Below, piece by piece: positions 1-6,293 of a stretch of 6,293 nt of DNA (position 1 is its first letter; each line of letters opens with the position of its first letter). The notes under the pieces were generated by a model, which searched no databases, was not told the DNA's origin, and saw only the letters and a program-made list of their open reading frames with translations. The translations under genes were made by a program, and so were the position numbers. Source of the DNA: a virus (Duplodnaviria; Heunggongvirae; Uroviricota; Caudoviricetes); the IMG/VR virus record IMGVR_UViG_2671180921_000022, positions 1-6,293 of that record; one strand, 5' to 3'.

Positions 1-696
1 TCACTTCGGGTAAGGCTGAATCCTGGATAGCTTGGTGTTTAGGCGCTTTTTTGCACGCTTATTCAGGAATCTGATGTAGCGATACTGATTAAATTTGTGT
101 ACCACGGCCCGCTCCTTATTAGCCCGCAAATACTCGCCTCGTTGCCCTCCGCGCTTAATCGCGTTCATCGCTATCTCGTGATACCACTCGCCGTCCAGCT
201 CGTAGAACGTGCTTTCATGGCTACCAATAAAATCAAAATTCGACGCCTGATATACCACGCCAGCACGTCCGCAGCGTTCGTCTGCAAAAGACTGAACCCA
301 CTCAACTGACGGATACAGTAACCTGATAACTTTCAGCGCGTAGCTGATAGCCCGTGATTCAGAATTGCGGGGCATGTCGTCGTGTAGCCACATGCGGTTC
401 AGTTCCATGTAACCCCGGTTATCTGTTTCAAGCACGACACGACGCCCTGAGTTGGGATTAAGGGCATATCCCCACTGAAGAACGCCAACCAGATCACGTC
501 CGCTGAATACGCCCAGATGCAGGTAGGAGTTATTCACAAAACGGCGGGAATAATGCTTTGTCTGAATGATTGTGCGGGCCAGCCAGCAGGATATGGTTTC
601 AACGCGCAACTCCTTTGAACCATAGCCGACAATCCGGCCTTCATACTCAATAACGCAGGGTTTTGTCAGAATGCGTGATTTCTTCTCTTTTCCCAC
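1..696 (-). CDS. mom: Mom-like DNA modification protein (Mu Mom family); 231 aa if started at GTG 696..694, stop TGA at 3..1
   Basis: Long minus-strand ORF directly downstream of, and overlapping by 50 nt, a clear com homologue. The track ORF (1..738) opens with TTG; the first in-frame ATG is at 726 with no Shine-Dalgarno. GTG at 696..694 has GGAG 7 nt upstream and gives 231 aa, which is the length I recall for Mu Mom. Protein identity beyond synteny and size is from memory. Confidence 0.75.
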
Positions 697-832
697 AATA
701 CAGCTCCGTGGGATGCTCTTTGGCATTCGATATGACAATGTAACGTTTACAGCGAGGGCATTTAATTTCTATATGCTTAAAACCTCCTTTAAACAGTAAC
801 TTATTGCAGTTCTTACAGCGAACAGAGTCCAT
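647..832 (-). CDS. com: Com zinc-finger translational activator of mom (61 aa)
   Basis: ATG at 832..830 preceded by AGGGAG. Product [61 protein letters not shown] has CxxC-x15-CxxC and is near-identical in pattern to remembered Mu Com (..[22 protein letters not shown]..). The track ORF start at 865 is a GTG with no RBS and is less likely. Confidence 0.85.
691..713 (-). promoter_or_regulatory. Translation-inhibition hairpin sequestering the mom start codon and Shine-Dalgarno
   Basis: Minus-strand RNA 713..691 is UCCCAC-GGAGCUGUAUU-GUGGGA: a 6-bp stem (713-708 pairs with 696-691) and an 11-nt loop. GGAG is in the loop and the GUG start forms the 5' end of the 3' arm. This matches the Com-relieved occlusion mechanism known for Mu mom. 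Confidence 0.5.
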
Positions 833-905
833 GATTCTCCCTGTGTAATAACCAGATACGACCACCCGGAGGGCTGGGGATATTTAACCACACATGATGT
901 AAAAC

Positions 906-933
906 GACGATCGATATGATGGTATCGATCGTC
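906..933. promoter_or_regulatory. Perfect 11-bp inverted repeat with 6-bp spacer carrying two Dam (GATC) sites; candidate methylation-sensitive operator for the com-mom promoter
   Basis: GACGATCGATA (906-916), spacer tgatgg, TATCGATCGTC (923-933); the arms are exact reverse complements. GATC at 909-912 and 927-930. The element lies 74-101 bp upstream of the com ATG in the only sizeable non-coding gap of the window (833-973). Confidence 0.5.
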
Positions 934-973
934 ATAATCTATACAAAACGCTTAATTATTAACCTTTTTTGAG

Positions 974-1444
974 TCAGCTTTCTGCGGCACTCTGAGAAAG
1001 AGGCTCTGCTATCAGGGACAGCAGTCTCTCTGTCTGTTTTCTGTTTTCGAGGGTAATTGCGCAATCCCGTTTCACCTCCTCTGCATATAATCTGACACTT
1101 TCCGCACTTTTTTGTATCTGCATTGCAATCTCTTCGAACTTTTTAAGAGATTCAGGGCGCAAATCTGCATCTGTCACCGACAAAAAATCGTTAAGCGAAC
1201 CGTCCTGTGAATCTTCATAAACGCGAATGATGCCGATTTCTGAAAGGCGCTGTGCGCTCTGTGTCAGGCGAACACTGTACACGCCCGGCAGAACGGGGAA
1301 GTCGTACTCCCCGCTCTGTGTAGTGACGTGGCTGAAAACACCTTTCAGAATCCCTGCACGGTTGTGCAGGGAGGTCAGCGTGATGGTTGTGCCGCCCAGC
1401 GGTTCTCCTGTGGGCGTTTTAATCACACCTTTAAGCTGCGGCAT
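974..1444 (-). CDS. Orphan side-tail-fibre N-terminal domain protein (lambda Stf N-terminal domain-like, about 156 aa), lacking shaft and receptor-binding parts
   Basis: The product aligns by eye to the remembered lambda Stf N-terminus: LKGVIKTPTGEP vs ISGVLKDGTGKP, GVYSVRL vs GQYSVIL, IRVYEDSQDGSLNDFL vs ITVYEDSQPGTLNDFL, DLRPESLKKFEE vs DARPEVLRRLE. The ATG at 1444 has GGAG 7 nt upstream and aligns with the lambda Stf start; track ATGs at 1486 and 1471 are alternatives. The ORF overlaps the tfa stop by 14 nt. Confidence 0.7.
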   Translation of the reverse strand: MPQLKGVIKTPTGEPLGGTTITLTSLHNRAGILKGVFSHVTTQSGEYDFPVLPGVYSVRLTQSAQRLSEIGIIRVYEDSQDGSLNDFLSVTDADLRPESLKKFEEIAMQIQKSAESVRLYAEEVKRDCAITLENRKQTERLLSLIAEPLSQSAAES

Positions 1445-1961
1445 CGGGATGCTCCGGCCAGCTGATGGCATTAAGGGAGGCTTCATCAGTAACGGCGCTT
1501 AAATCCAGCGCTTTTACCGCTTTGATATACGCCATCCACTGCGCAAGACGAGCTTTGTCGTCATCACTGATGACGCCCAGCTCCAGCTCGGCTTTCCAGT
1601 CGGAGGTGATGTCCTTTGCTTCAGTCAGCAGATGCTGGCGTTGTTTTTCTGCCAGTTGCGAATAATCAACAGGAACCGGCAGCACTTCGCCGTCTTTGTA
1701 ATACCAACTGGCTTCAATGCCAAAGCCTTCCGGCAGTTCATCAACTTCCACAATGGTGAAGCCTGCCGGATAAAGACGGGACACGTCTTCTGCCATTGAA
1801 TAAATCACGCCGCTTTCAGGGTGAATGCACAATTTGTATCTCTTCGTGAATTTGTCCATGGATTCATAAAAATCCTGTCCGTCTTCACTGCGGAAATACT
1901 GAATGCCTTCACCATAAGGCATATCTTCAGGGTAGTAACGCGTAACATTTCTGAGTTCCAT
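1431..1961 (-). CDS. Tail fibre assembly chaperone (Tfa; Mu U / P2 gpG family), about 176 aa
   Basis: Product has the characteristic Tfa C-terminal region (..LGVISDDDKARLAQWMAYIKAV..SWPEHP). ATG at 1961 is preceded by AAGGAG (minus-strand TTAAGGAGAAAATAATG). It lies immediately downstream of the fibre gene. The track start at 1997 overlaps the fibre ORF and has no RBS. Confidence 0.85.
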   Translation of the reverse strand: MELRNVTRYYPEDMPYGEGIQYFRSEDGQDFYESMDKFTKRYKLCIHPESGVIYSMAEDVSRLYPAGFTIVEVDELPEGFGIEASWYYKDGEVLPVPVDYSQLAEKQRQHLLTEAKDITSDWKAELELGVISDDDKARLAQWMAYIKAVKALDLSAVTDEASLNAISWPEHPDAAA

Positions 1962-1975
1962 TATTTTCTCCTTAA

Positions 1976-2785
1976 TTAACCTGATACGGTGCGCCATGAA
2001 CCATTGATATAAATCTGCGCGGATTTGTAATACACACCACCGATGTTATCCGCCGAACTTCTTCCCGTATCCTGGACATAAATGCCTGATAACTGACAGC
2101 CTGAAGGCGCGCGAAACGTCCAGGTGATTTCGTTACCGCCCGGGTTGTAAAACACCTCATTGGTGTACTGAAAATCACGCACAGCGCCGGAATCGGTGGT
2201 GCTGATGGTGATATCACTGGTGCCATCAAACAGCACATTGTTAATCCTGCGTGCATTCTGAAGGCGGGTTGCCGTTCCGGCGTTGCCGCTGATGTTGCTG
2301 ATGGTGATATCCGAAGACAGGGCCAAACCGTTGACCCTGCGGGTATTCGGTACAGCACTATTGGCTTTATTTACCGTGTCACCTAATGAAAGTGCGTTGA
2401 TAATTTCACTGGCCGTGGTTTTTCCAAGAATACCGCGCACAAAAGCACTGAGCGGCGTTAACGCCATTGTGTCTTCGCTGGTAAAATACGGGAACGTGTT
2501 ATTCTCACCGGTTAATCCGGCAATGGCACCGGCTGAACCACTGTTCATAATAAACAGCTTTTTCAGGGCTGCCATTATCTGACCGGTATCTGCTTTATCC
2601 GGCGTTATTCCGGCTTCTTCGAGAATTTTCAGCAATTCAGACTGAATGATATTAAACCAGTCCGGCCCCGGATAGGTGGGCGGAATACCGTTCCCGCCTT
2701 CGGTGAAATAAAGCGTTGTCTGGCTTGATACTGGCGCAACAGGCGGCATCACCGGCACGCCGGTATTATTATCAACATGATACAT
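1976..2785 (-). CDS. Short tail fibre protein (269 aa): tail-collar-like N-terminus, P2 gpH-like C-terminus
   Basis: ATG at 2785. N-terminal ..YPGPDWFNIIQSELL.. resembles the conserved baseplate-attachment region of Mu S / P2 H fibres. The central ..FPYFTSEDTMALTPLSAFVRGILGK.. and the terminal ..YINGSWRTVSG resemble remembered P2 gpH (..FPYFTGNDVASLATLTKVGRDILAK.., ..YINGTWYNVAQV). Stop TAA at 1978..1976, followed by the tfa RBS. Confidence 0.8.
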   Translation of the reverse strand: MYHVDNNTGVPVMPPVAPVSSQTTLYFTEGGNGIPPTYPGPDWFNIIQSELLKILEEAGITPDKADTGQIMAALKKLFIMNSGSAGAIAGLTGENNTFPYFTSEDTMALTPLSAFVRGILGKTTASEIINALSLGDTVNKANSAVPNTRRVNGLALSSDITISNISGNAGTATRLQNARRINNVLFDGTSDITISTTDSGAVRDFQYTNEVFYNPGGNEITWTFRAPSGCQLSGIYVQDTGRSSADNIGGVYYKSAQIYINGSWRTVSG

Positions 2786-2827
2786 ATCTGATTATTTCTC
2801 CTGATATTGTGTATACAGAGATATTTA

Positions 2828-3871
2828 TTATTCAGTGGCGCTCCGTGCCTGATTAAGCAACTCCGCTGAGAAGGTCAGCTCCCCCCTTGCGAAAGGCGTT
2901 TCTCCGCCCGGTTCCGCCATAAAACTCTGTGAGACTGTGGTCCAGCTGTTTGTGTCGTATTGTGCGCCATCCTCTGTAATCATTGCGCCTTCATGGCTTC
3001 CGTTTTTCACTTTCCAGGCCAGACAGTTATTGGGTGCGTCTGCGCTGCGGTAAGTAACAGAAGCCATTACAGCAATGACATTGTTGTTACTGTTGTCCAC
3101 CGCACCAAACGTAACCTGTGCAGCCTCCGTGGAGGGTGAGAGCATCAGGTATCCGGCATCACTGTCAGATGTGTTCAGCCCCGTCACAATATCTTTGTCC
3201 AGCGAGTTTCTGGCACTCCCGCCGGAGAACGCCGTTACCGGACTGTAGCCAACCTCAACACTCCCCAGCAGTGATGGTGAGGCATCATAGTTATCACCAT
3301 ACGGCAGCGTCGCCAGGTACATATCACCCAGCATCACAGTACCGGATACACCTGACGTGAAAATACGTCCGGTATCGCCAATCCCCACCGTAACCTGGTC
3401 CACGTCATTAAAGTAAACGCGTCCGACTAACGAGCGGTTACAGTACAGGCTGGCTGACGCCCGATTACTTTCACTTAGCGCCACAAAAATCTCAAAATAG
3501 TAACTGGCTGCCTCATCAGGATACGGTGTGGTGAATGATTTACCGCCGACACGGATATACGAAGATGAATTTTTCCCCCCTTCACTTAATGTCAGACGAA
3601 AACCCATCTGTACGGCAGAGCCGCTTAAATCAGGAAGCGGAATATAAAGATAAAGAGGTCCCTGCGGCTGAAAAATCAGCCCTGTTCTTTCTGTTGTATT
3701 AACAACCTGTGTGCCACGACGAACGGATACGACAGAAGAGTTGTACATGTCACTGATAAGTGTGACGCCGTTTTCGTTCAGTGCGGAAAGAATGTTTGCC
3801 GGAGAGGGGGTCTCACACAATTCCTCATCCGCCGGAATTTGTCGGAAGCTTTCGAGTTTTATGATATTCAA
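2828..3871 (-). CDS. Hypothetical protein in the tail-fibre locus (347 aa from TTG 3871; 362 aa from TTG 3916); possible accessory receptor-binding or fibre-associated protein
   Basis: Uninterrupted minus-strand ORF with no in-frame ATG near its 5' end. TTG at 3871 is preceded by AAGGAG at 7-nt spacing, whereas TTG at 3916 overlaps the gp48-like gene and has no RBS. Ends in tandem stops TAA TAA (2830..2825). Ser/Gly/Thr/Asn/Tyr-rich like phage fibre or receptor-binding domains, but I recognise no specific family. Confidence 0.6.
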   Translation of the reverse strand: MNIIKLESFRQIPADEELCETPSPANILSALNENGVTLISDMYNSSVVSVRRGTQVVNTTERTGLIFQPQGPLYLYIPLPDLSGSAVQMGFRLTLSEGGKNSSSYIRVGGKSFTTPYPDEAASYYFEIFVALSESNRASASLYCNRSLVGRVYFNDVDQVTVGIGDTGRIFTSGVSGTVMLGDMYLATLPYGDNYDASPSLLGSVEVGYSPVTAFSGGSARNSLDKDIVTGLNTSDSDAGYLMLSPSTEAAQVTFGAVDNSNNNVIAVMASVTYRSADAPNNCLAWKVKNGSHEGAMITEDGAQYDTNSWTTVSQSFMAEPGGETPFARGELTFSAELLNQARSATE

Positions 3872-3893
3872 AGTTACTCTCCTTTTATTTTTG

Positions 3894-4817
3894 CTATTCG
3901 GATATGACCACAGCAAAATGCAGTCCCGGATGATTAATCATTAACGGTTCACTGGTTCTGTTGACTGTCTGTAATTGCATACTGTTAACCGGTACGGGGG
4001 AGCCTGTTCTGTATCCCACCTGCATCTGCGCACTGGTAATTGTCATGGGTTCAGTTGTTGGTTGACCTGAATGCAATTGTGCCCTGCTGAGCATCAGCGG
4101 TTCACCTGCCAGTGCCGGAACAACCGCAAAATGCATTCCAGCACAGTTAATCGCTACTGGATCCGCAGCTTTGTATCCGGCCTGAACCCAGGTACGGTTA
4201 ATGGACAGTGGTGGACCGGAAAGAGATTCATCATCACCATCTGTGTAAAAAAACTCATACCCTGTTCCGCCCATGCGGTAATTTTTCAGGAGACATTCCA
4301 GTTCGCGGGTCCGTTCGCTGATTAATGGCGTCATGACGTCATCAATACAGGTAAACCGACCGGCATCGTTGTCCGGGACTTCCACTTTCAGCAGCCAGCG
4401 ATACCGCGCCGGATGCAGCGGATACATGCAGTCGCGCAGGCAGTGGTGCGGCAGAACGGCCGTCACCTTTATGGTGAAGCCCAGCGCCGCAGCAGCAGCT
4501 TCAATCTGCCAGGTTGCCAGCCCGCCCTTGCGGCGGTATTTCTCAACCACAGCACGGCGACGGGCTTCCGTTGTGGTGGCGGCAATTCCGCATTCCGGCA
4601 GCGCCAGATACTGCTCCCACTCCGGCAGCAACTGGAGCGTGGTTTCCGGGCGCATCTCCACATGCAGACGCGAGGCGTCGTATTCAACGCGGGTTAAACG
4701 CTCTGCAAGCGCCCTTAAAAAACGGTTTAAATCTGCATCGTTATCACGCGGCCATGCCTTACCCCGTGGCATGACCTGTTGCAGTGCGGTCAGCCATTCC
4801 GTCACGCTGTGAGCCAT
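3894..4817 (-). CDS. Mu gp48 / P2 gpI-like baseplate-tail protein (DUF2313/YmfQ-like N-terminal about 190 aa) with an extra C-terminal repeat region of about 115 aa
   Basis: ATG at 4817. N-terminus MAHSVTEWLTALQQVMPRGKAWPRD... is typical of gpI/gp48-family proteins. Position is right after the baseplate-J-like gene, with a 16-nt overlap. The C-terminal region carries about five degenerate 15-aa repeats. Confidence 0.8.
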   Translation of the reverse strand: MAHSVTEWLTALQQVMPRGKAWPRDNDADLNRFLRALAERLTRVEYDASRLHVEMRPETTLQLLPEWEQYLALPECGIAATTTEARRRAVVEKYRRKGGLATWQIEAAAAALGFTIKVTAVLPHHCLRDCMYPLHPARYRWLLKVEVPDNDAGRFTCIDDVMTPLISERTRELECLLKNYRMGGTGYEFFYTDGDDESLSGPPLSINRTWVQAGYKAADPVAINCAGMHFAVVPALAGEPLMLSRAQLHSGQPTTEPMTITSAQMQVGYRTGSPVPVNSMQLQTVNRTSEPLMINHPGLHFAVVISE

Positions 4818-5878
4818 GTCACCACCCCGATGGTGATAAGCTCATCCACATCACTGGTGGTGTCTTCCCCGATGTTGAGGAAGTAATCCGTGATACCGGA
4901 CGTCATACCGATGGCCGTGCGCAGCGAGGACACCGGCAGCATCTGACCGGGGGCCAGCGTTTTCTGTAATGCGGTCAGGTTTGCCCGGACGGCGTTCCTG
5001 TTCGCCTGGCTGTCCGGTGTCAGACGGATGGACAGGTCGACCTTCTTCAGCCTGACCTGTACCGGCCAGACCTCGATGCCGCCCGGTTTGCCCACCATCA
5101 CCCCGGTGGCCGGGTGTTTGTGGCAGAACAGATACTGCTCCATTGTCTTCAGGTCGTCCCGTGTGGGGATAATGTCTTCACGGTCATCATAAAGCCATGC
5201 CAGCCCGACCGTGCCGGGGCCGTGCCACGCATCCCACGCCCACGCGCGGCTGACACCCGGCACTTCACGCGCCCAGATGACGTAATCATGCAGTGCACCG
5301 CCCACCGGGGGATTGCGGCGCACATACAGCAGACGGTCCAGCAGCTCTGCGATGGATTCGATGTCTGCGCCACCGGTGATGCCACTTTCAGTCACCGCGC
5401 CTGTGCTGCCCGTTCCGGGTAGCGGGGATAACAGAGTGAGCACGGCACCGGCAGCAAGATTGCCCGCCACACCGGCTTCTTCAGCCTGCACGATGACAGT
5501 GACCTCGCCGTCCTGTACCTCGCCGGATGTGAGTACCTGATACACCTGATTCGTGTCGGACTGCATCCGGGTTTCTGCCGGGATGGGGGACTGACTGGTG
5601 AAGGTCACCGGTCCGCTGGCAAAGGTGGCCTGCTTGCGGATAATCCCTTCATACGTTGCTGTTTTGATAATGGTTTCATCATCAGACGCGGTGGACGGAA
5701 TAATCTGGTCTTTAATCCAGCTCTGATGGTCGTATAAATCCCGGACCTGACTGCTGAATGACACGTTCAGCGCCTGCTCAACACTGACAGGCGGCAGCTT
5801 TTGCAGGCCGAGTTCATACGCAATATCTTTTTCGCCGTCGGCAATCAGTTTGCCCAGCGTGGGGATTTCATACGGCAT
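4802..5878 (-). CDS. Baseplate J-like protein (Mu gp47 / P2 gpJ family), 358 aa
   Basis: Long ORF between gp46-like and gpI-like genes; the size matches Mu gp47. ATG at 5878 has GGGAGG about 9 nt upstream and overlaps the gp46-like stop (TGA 5870..5868). The track start at 5911 is a TTG deeper into the upstream gene. Confidence 0.8.
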   Translation of the reverse strand: MPYEIPTLGKLIADGEKDIAYELGLQKLPPVSVEQALNVSFSSQVRDLYDHQSWIKDQIIPSTASDDETIIKTATYEGIIRKQATFASGPVTFTSQSPIPAETRMQSDTNQVYQVLTSGEVQDGEVTVIVQAEEAGVAGNLAAGAVLTLLSPLPGTGSTGAVTESGITGGADIESIAELLDRLLYVRRNPPVGGALHDYVIWAREVPGVSRAWAWDAWHGPGTVGLAWLYDDREDIIPTRDDLKTMEQYLFCHKHPATGVMVGKPGGIEVWPVQVRLKKVDLSIRLTPDSQANRNAVRANLTALQKTLAPGQMLPVSSLRTAIGMTSGITDYFLNIGEDTTSDVDELITIGVVTWLTA

Positions 5879-6293
5879 TAATGGTGGCCTCCCATCGGCG
5901 GGTGATTTCAATTGTGAGCGTGGTTTTGTCCGGGCGGGTTAACACCACCTGAAAGGCAATACGGTCAGGGACGATGATGCTGGCCGTGACGGTGGCGTTA
6001 CGGGCGTAACCGGCCCGCAGCAGCGGTTGCATGGACAGCCGCGCGTAATCTTCCACACGCAGGCGGACATCTTCCGTCAGCTTTTCACGCTCAAGCAGCC
6101 ACAGGCGGGAACCCCACGAAAAATCACTGTACGTGTCGCCCGGCCAGCCGCGCGGGTCGCCGGAACCATCAGGGATGACATCATCGTCATCAGCACGGGC
6201 ATCGGTGAAAAGGCAGATAAGAACCTGAGTGACCAGCCCCTCATCCAGCGAGAGGCCGTTATGGGTGACGGTGATGTCACCCCGTGAGAGCAT
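5868..6293 (-). CDS. Mu gp46-like baseplate protein (GP46 family), 141 aa; the start codon is the last triplet of the window, so the true 5' end cannot be confirmed
   Basis: Product contains ..DDDDVIPDGSGDPRGWPGDTYSD..GSRLWLLEREK.., matching the motif pattern I recall for the phage GP46 family (acidic stretch, GWWGD, GSRLWLL.REK). ATG at 6293..6291 gives a length typical for the family, but no upstream context is visible. Confidence 0.7.
   Translation of the reverse strand: MLSRGDITVTHNGLSLDEGLVTQVLICLFTDARADDDDVIPDGSGDPRGWPGDTYSDFSWGSRLWLLEREKLTEDVRLRVEDYARLSMQPLLRAGYARNATVTASIIVPDRIAFQVVLTRPDKTTLTIEITRRWEATINAV

Follow-up and report, generated by a model that had tools for sequence, protein, structure and literature searches.

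The stretch of DNA analysed here, referred to throughout as the window, comprises the 6,293 nucleotides (nt) at positions 1 to 6,293 of the IMG/VR virus record IMGVR_UViG_2671180921_000022. It is the right end of an Escherichia coli transposable (Mu-like) myovirus prophage, of a lineage distinct from Mu, D108 and SfMu, and the subject of this report is the arrangement of its tail-fibre genes between the baseplate genes and the com-mom cassette. We consider it likely, with a probability of about 80%, that the receptor-binding genes of this lineage stand in a fixed tandem array and vary by cassette exchange and decay, and that a short open reading frame (ORF) with a side-tail-fibre (Stf) N-terminal domain, lying between the chaperone gene tfa and com, is the remnant of a second fibre gene.

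An ORF list of both strands places every credible gene of the window on the minus strand (Table 1); plus-strand ORFs are short and overlap coding genes, and the Pfam run covered the nine minus-strand genes only. Along the direction of transcription these are gp46 (cut by the window end), gp47/baseplate J, gp48, the gene of a 347-amino-acid (aa) protein, a 269-aa fibre, Tfa, the Stf-N-domain ORF, com and mom. The Mu-type baseplate wedge order gp46-gp47-gp48, followed by a fibre and Tfa, is therefore present, and the Pfam families matched are GP46, Baseplate_J, Phage_Mu_Gp48, Caudo_TAP, phage_tail_N, Zn_ribbon_Com and Mom. The window opens exactly at the stop codon of mom, and com overlaps the start of mom.

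The boundaries of tfa and of the Stf-N ORF (156 aa) were corrected to those given in Table 1; readings of the latter of 170 aa and 188 aa begin at in-frame ATGs further upstream. With the start of com at 832, the com-mom control region between com and the Stf-N ORF is 833-973, and the interval 833-1997 on which the earlier note had commented is made up of this control region, the Stf-N ORF, tfa and the final codons of the fibre gene. Scanning 600-2100 for promoter and terminator consensus sequences brought no interpretable result, only one promoter-like site on the wrong strand and terminator-like matches inside coding sequence.

Table 1. Features of the window, with their positions, strand and the basis of each assignment
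Feature	Position	Strand	Basis
mom, DNA-modification gene	1..726	-	Pfam Mom E=2e-75; 726 bp in relatives' annotation
com, zinc-ribbon translational activator of mom	647..832	-	Pfam Zn_ribbon_Com; 186 bp in relatives' annotation
com-mom control region, left boundary of the shared com-mom cassette	833..964	-	Alignment with Mu, SfMu and three E. coli relatives
Stub-allele-specific stretch: 3' third of the stub ORF, deletion scar, 9-bp spacer after the stop	965..1129	-	
Second-position tail-fibre stub, 156 codons	974..1444	-	PF08400 E=9e-25
Tfa, assembly chaperone for the 269-aa fibre	1431..1961	-	Pfam Caudo_TAP; phrog_136 E=2e-55
Short tail fibre, 269 aa	1976..2785	-	Mu S-like N-terminus; phrog_1833
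347-aa protein, concanavalin-A-like lectin/carbohydrate-binding module (CBM) fold	2828..3871	-	Fold search
gp48/YmfQ baseplate wedge protein with repeat extension	3894..4817	-	Pfam Phage_Mu_Gp48, residues 11-191 only
gp47/baseplate J wedge protein	4802..5878	-	Pfam Baseplate_J E=5e-59
gp46 baseplate wedge protein, cut by window end	5868..6293	-	Pfam GP46 E=3e-32

Search for an inversion system

The earlier note had claimed that neither an invertase gene nor an invertible segment lies between the fibre genes and com-mom, and this was borne out. The best tblastn match of Mu Gin against the window has E = 1.7, and none of the nine minus-strand genes run has a recombinase Pfam match. No crossover site was found in the window: the best matches to gix, hixL and the symmetric consensus carry 9-11 mismatches in 26 positions, and shuffled sequence, with 8-12 mismatches, does as well or better. 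The window likewise holds no long inverted repeat, the best being 24 nt at 75% complementarity, and the same repeat tool recovered the G-segment repeat of Mu as a positive control (41 nt at 93%, the arms being 3,002 nt apart). Nor do the credible genes of the window, all on the minus strand, include another group of variable fibre and chaperone genes facing the opposite way. Simple repeats amount to a single A7 run and a trivial repeat of 7 bp, and phase variation by this route was therefore rejected.

The surroundings of the window were followed in a twin contig (L016, E. coli GCA_039951675.1), which was located through the 347-aa protein and differs from the window at 2 of 6,293 bases (99.97% identity). 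Genes for the sheath, tube, tape measure and baseplate lie upstream of the window segment in this contig; on the downstream side, about 130 bp past the mom stop, a host ABC-transporter gene begins. An invertase gene or crossover sites just outside the window, which the earlier note had named as the finding that would speak against its claim, are absent from these flanks, and so is an inverted fibre set. Across 16 loci (L001-L016; 268,732 bases), tblastn of Gin at E≤1e-3 gave matches in the Mu and SfMu loci only, and none at that threshold in the twin contig with its 7.5-kb and 7-kb flanks or in the 13 other related loci. The complete related prophage of NZ_CP087377.1 (strain RIVM_C019217), which sits between yehR and yehQ and runs from the repressor, transposase, Gam and Mor genes through to mom, encodes a transposase, an AAA ATPase, Gam and Mor, and has no recombinase gene.

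This prophage belongs to a group of 23 complete E. coli genomes carrying the same Stf-N sequence as the window, and the fibre region has a single orientation in all of them and in all contigs examined. Inversion could in principle be performed in trans, by an invertase of the Pin/Gin family from the host or another prophage acting at cryptic sites in the fibre region, and Gin/Pin-like recombinase matches do occur in 1,082 of 5,426 E. coli genomes. We nevertheless regard such switching as extremely improbable: there is no gix- or hix-like site beyond chance and no inverted repeat better than the one mentioned above, the genes are all co-oriented with no silent inverted set to switch to, and the orientation is the same in 23 of 23 complete genomes and in every contig.

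Relation to Mu and the gin-less prophages of E. coli

In a megablast comparison with isolated phages, DNA likeness to Mu, SfMu, D108 and the Yersinia Mu-like phages is limited to positions 1-822 of the window, at about 88.6% nucleotide identity. Only com-mom of Mu-type phages was matched, i.e., the lineage has no cultured DNA-level representative in that collection, and the IMG/VR viral contigs contain no exact copy of a 51-mer chosen from the window's divergent part. Mu-level identity ends at position 822, past which one 73-bp patch is the sole DNA similarity to Mu. At the protein level, Mom is 97% and Com 73% identical to the Mu proteins, gp47 38%, gp48 32% and the N-terminus of the fibre 41%. 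The view of the earlier note that modules of different origin meet here held up, with Mom and Com near Mu, structural proteins at 32-41%, a fibre tip shared with other phages and PF08400 on the Stf-N ORF, and these comparisons support reading the region as a mosaic.

Two CGATCG boxes, with their GATC at 909-912 and 927-930, and a 'TATAG' stand unchanged upstream of com in both the lineage and Mu. Mu's third GATC box and promoter core are not conserved in 833-964, where the window has an 11-bp gap relative to Mu at the Mu promoter core (833-964 against L001:940-1060), and homology to gin-less relatives upstream of com ends at 947-964. The first conserved box lies, in Mu, inside the last nine codons of gin, and the bases in common with the 3' end of Mu gin are only 'TATAG' and this box. 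In Mu this stretch is part of the Dam-methylation/OxyR control region of mom, so that function can explain their retention, and the left edge of the shared com-mom cassette is thus the edge of the mom control region and not a recognisable remnant of gin.

Among complete E. coli genomes, com-mom is found in 97 and the canonical gin-com junction in 44, so about half of the cassettes do not lie beside a Mu-type gin. Sorting com-mom copies by identity band alone was rejected, since the copy of FDAARGOS_1058, 91% identical with shorter coverage, belongs to a canonical gin-bearing prophage, which also means that both layouts coexist in E. coli. Seven gin-less prophages were sampled and have one layout, i.e., a 194-aa gp48, a short fibre, Tfa, a co-oriented second fibre with an Stf N-domain, and com-mom. 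Their second fibres vary in condition: four are intact (605, 639, 749 and 777 aa), that of ETEC1703 is frameshifted (about 1,037 codons), that of RM11911 is decayed, and in locus L017 the fibre is replaced by a 202-aa anchor and a 370-aa protein. A gene for a DUF4376 chaperone follows most of the intact or frameshifted full-length second fibres, and a plasmid-borne com-mom fragment has a DUF4376 remnant, not gin, upstream of com. The 605-aa second fibre of KFu019 (L005:5358-7175) differs from the others in its C-terminal part, possibly a tailspike-like domain with enzymatic activity, and is not followed by a DUF4376 gene. Relatives of the same lineage are 90-97% identical to the window over com-mom, Tfa, the fibre and gp46-gp47, in the same gene order. 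The gin-less tandem layout is therefore the standard state of a separate lineage and not a one-off loss from Mu.

Compared with the right end of Mu, D108 and SfMu, the window shares gp46-gp47-gp48 followed by a fibre and Tfa, an S-like fibre N-terminus, com-mom at the extreme right end and the two CGATCG boxes, but it is without gin, the 34-bp inverted repeats, the inverted U'-S' set, the third GATC and the Mu promoter core. The place of U'-S'-gin in Mu is taken in the window's lineage by the co-oriented Stf-type second fibre, of which the window keeps a stub only. The earlier suggestion of a fixed-host-range derivative of the canonical Mu layout is not supported, given the two tandem co-oriented fibre cassettes of the relatives and the lack of a gix or gin remnant. 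In its most direct form, this suggestion would have a canonical Mu-type phage losing its G(-) gene set and gin by deletion, which froze its host range. The Mu-like com-mom cassette (88.6% nucleotide identity; Mom 97% at the protein level), the S-like N-terminus of the fibre and the control-region boxes that begin inside what is the end of gin in Mu are all in keeping with such an origin. However, the baseplate and fibre proteins are just 32-41% identical to those of Mu, DNA similarity to Mu is confined to the single 73-bp patch past 822, no gix remnant is left in the window, the position of gin in the relatives is filled by the co-oriented Stf-type fibre and the DUF4376 gene, and the overlap with the end of gin amounts to 'TATAG' and one CGATCG box, explicable by mom control. 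We consider direct descent from a Mu-type phage quite unlikely.

Mu-like phages without an invertible G region have been reported before, namely BcepMu and KS10 (PMC2628397). These share with the present lineage a transposable way of life, Mu-like tail modules and fixed fibre genes (PMC2628397), but they are Burkholderia phages, and the KS10 paper (PMC2628397) mentions mom 0 times. The present lineage, by comparison, joins a gin-less fibre region to a Mu-type com-mom cassette in E. coli.

The stub at the second fibre position

What remains in the Stf-N ORF is the Stf-type anchor domain at the N-terminus, together with some 50 aa of shaft. PF08400 matches it at residues 18-141 of the 170-aa reading, and it aligns with residues 1 to about 125 of the full-length 605-639-aa second fibres, after which it continues in diverged shaft-like sequence and then stops. 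PHROG tail-fibre families of 296-1,210 profile positions likewise match only its first ~130 residues. In the DNA, window positions 965-1129 stand in place of 2,173 bp of STEC383, with both flanks aligning, and have no match to L003, L005 or L006, while both flanks match there too. Among complete E. coli genomes this stretch is found only in the 23 stub carriers, in whose RefSeq annotation the same sequence is a fibre pseudogene, 'incomplete, missing C-terminus'. The last 30 codons of the stub have no full-length DNA parent in E. coli genomes beyond these 23 carriers; they show a loose likeness to shaft sequence of the partial protein P0018. The long shaft, the C-terminal receptor-binding domain and a downstream chaperone are absent from the locus, and com comes after 141 bp.

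The partial alignment, the PHROG coverage, the 2,173 bp replaced and the RefSeq pseudogene calls together lead us to read the ORF as a deletion stub of a second fibre gene, the fibre having been lost by deletion and not absent from the outset. The deletion would have been about 2 kb relative to STEC383, with a range of about 1.4 to 3.2 kb according to which allele was ancestral. In speaking of an 'orphan' Stf N-domain ORF, the earlier note was right about the N-domain but incomplete, the ORF being, on this reading, a truncated second fibre. Of the known side tail fibres, lambda Stf and e14 StfE (PF08400, with Tfa or DUF4376 chaperones) have in common with the stub its anchor domain and the initial segment of shaft. 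The stub differs in being cut at 156 aa, with neither a receptor-binding tip nor a downstream chaperone, and in sitting in a contractile-tail Mu-like phage, whereas lambda Stf belongs to a lambdoid siphovirus.

The stub is widespread. The assembly collection lists the exact protein in 801 blocks, the 471-bp DNA is identical in the window and six contigs, and the 23-genome group carries the same stub at 99.7-100% identity. The prophages that carry it end in different ways. Eight examined prophage ends are of Mu type (...GCGCCGCTTCA), 115 bp after mom; L009 and L010 have a different end sequence, common to both; and each of these ten ends adjoins a different host sequence. The twin contig has a third type, with 'TATCTTGAA' repeats (L016, 13872-14001). 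Comparison just after mom (L016; L009 and L010; L002 and L011-L015) therefore gives three right-end types among prophages with an identical stub, i.e., the Mu type ...GCGCCGCTTCA, the 'TATCTTGAA' repeats of L016 and 'GGTATCAAA' repeats, which indicates that the fibre/com-mom block recombines among transposable phages with different ends. The traits of a transposable phage are seen outside the window, in the transposase and Mor of NZ_CP087377.1, the transposon-like ends and the varied chromosomal sites. Since stub prophages occur at varied insertion sites, with varied first fibres and right ends, the stub haplotype has lysogenised or transposed many times, and the second fibre is accordingly dispensable for spread.

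Whether the stub does anything is a separate matter, and we think that it is probably non-functional. The alternative is that its 156-aa product serves as a virion or accessory protein, perhaps as an anchor-domain plug or adaptor at the docking site of the second fibre, and such a role would be compatible with a fixed tandem array that varies by exchange and decay. The ORF is intact, with GGAG 7 nt upstream of its ATG and a 14-nt overlap of its start with the tfa stop; the identical protein occurs very widely, beside different first-fibre alleles and all three right-end types; and one 93%-identical copy of the same length gives a ratio of nonsynonymous to synonymous substitution rates (dN/dS) of about 0.35. 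However, all close copies are identical, and identical DNA points to recent spread, so that conservation says little about selection. The lone dN/dS estimate comes from 24 differences, some of them maybe older than the truncation. The product would have little of the shaft, no tip and no chaperone, RefSeq calls the gene a pseudogene, and second fibres have decayed in other members of the lineage too. A functional stub therefore seems unlikely to us, though well short of negligible.

Receptor-binding modules and host recognition

At the first position, the short fibre combines parts of different affinity. Its residues 1-82 match the structure of Mu fibre S (PDB 5yvq, E=2.4e-20) and residues 1-114 are 41% identical to Mu S, while its tip (aa 201-269, the last ~70 residues) is common to Rac-type, Pectobacterium, Actinobacillus and peduovirus fibres. 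The N-terminus of Mu gp49 docks on a loop of gp48 (PMC11915804), and by analogy the N-terminus of the present fibre should dock on gp48 as in Mu. Tfa is 26-30% identical at the protein level to Mu U and U'. Among prophages with identical stub DNA (the window, L009, L010 and L015 were compared), the first fibre occurs as alleles of 259, 269, 331 and 356 aa and Tfa as 176 or 181 aa, and such different fibres beside identical stub DNA point to recent cassette exchange at the first position. Per 200-base block, window 2000-4400 is 68-87% identical to the 23-genome group, compared with 92-100% elsewhere. Separately, the Stx-converting phage records LC727881.1 and LC727895.1 contain an annotated 'inserted Mu-like phage', the fibre of which shows 38% full-length identity to the window's 269-aa fibre.

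The gp48 of the window has a C-terminal extension of about 113 aa (~3897-4235, minus strand) made of six ~17-aa repeats of the form P-[LVM]-x-[ILV]-[NST]..., and this extension, with the following gene for a protein of 347-352 aa, was seen in every one of the ten stub-bearing loci examined as well as in the window. In the seven stub-less loci, gp48 has 194 aa and is not followed by such a gene; since the loci are not independent in phylogenetic terms, the association of stub and extension is only suggestive. Without a Pfam domain, the 347-aa family falls in a PHROG of unknown function and is variable (43-99% identity). A search of the sequence against solved structures gave nothing significant; its AlphaFold2 model is confident, with a pLDDT (predicted local distance difference test) of 90.4, and a fold search returned the concanavalin-A-like lectin/CBM fold. 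In L017 the gp48-type repeats follow instead an Stf N-domain, in the 202-aa protein P0024 (L017:8001-8609), and the next gene encodes a 370-aa homologue of the 347-aa protein.

These observations suggest that the 347-aa protein is probably an additional receptor-binding protein, and that together with the gp48 extension (2828-4235) it probably forms a further receptor-binding module. The repeat array may then be a portable docking adaptor for the lectin-fold protein, and if it does dock that protein, the phage probably carries two receptor-binding proteins at once. The earlier note had described a single fibre-tfa pair: one such pair is indeed present in fixed orientation, but the description overlooks this probable extra module. 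It is tempting to go further and suppose that the lineage broadens or retargets its host range by mounting several receptor-binding proteins at once on interchangeable anchors instead of using inversion, with the ~17-aa repeat array, on gp48 or on the Stf N-domain as in L017, docking the 347-aa family, and with the gp48 version having made the second fibre dispensable and so left the stub. We offer this wider scheme tentatively, and on balance would lean against it.

The reading of a fixed tandem array, to which the probability given at the outset applies, can be set out as follows. Host recognition in this lineage does without a Gin-inverted G segment, and the receptor-binding genes are held in one orientation between gp48 and com-mom. 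The first position holds a short fibre whose Mu S-like N-terminus should dock on gp48, followed by its Tfa chaperone, and the second a longer fibre on a lambda-Stf-type N-domain anchor, usually followed by a DUF4376 chaperone and then directly by com-mom. In the window, a deletion would have cut the second-position gene to its 156-codon stub, with loss of the remaining shaft, the receptor-binding tip and the chaperone. To this the stub haplotype adds the gp48 repeat extension and the adjacent lectin-fold protein, probably a further receptor-binding module. Host range would thus depend on fixed fibres expressed together and on the swapping of fibre cassettes among phages, and not on site-specific inversion.

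Several points weigh against this reading. The evidence on the flanks comes from the 99.97% identical contig L016 in place of the window's own genome, and the inspected part of that prophage stops short of its early region. The single orientation of the fibre region rests on assemblies and not on reads, so that a rare inversion could escape. The intact ORF of the stub, its plausible ribosome-binding site, the overlap with tfa and the dN/dS of about 0.35 make its non-functionality no more than probable. Finally, as homology to the Mu control region overlaps the last nine codons of Mu gin, the lineage may have had an ancestral gin, and evolution may have run in either direction.

The layout is ordinary for a common but little-described lineage of E. 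coli Mu-like prophages and is a case of ordinary phage mosaicism. It does, however, correct an expectation, more than it adds a new system: switching by Gin and the G segment characterises the Mu/D108/SfMu group and not Mu-like phages generally, and gin-less prophages with tandem fixed fibres house about half of the com-mom cassettes that complete E. coli genomes contain. For annotation, 'truncated fibre gene' is the better label for the 'orphan' Stf N-domain ORF. Mild novelty attaches only to the putative repeat adaptor with its lectin-fold module, and the occurrence of this adaptor on two different anchors, each time beside a lectin-fold protein, could help in understanding and engineering the modularity of receptor binding in contractile-tail phages.

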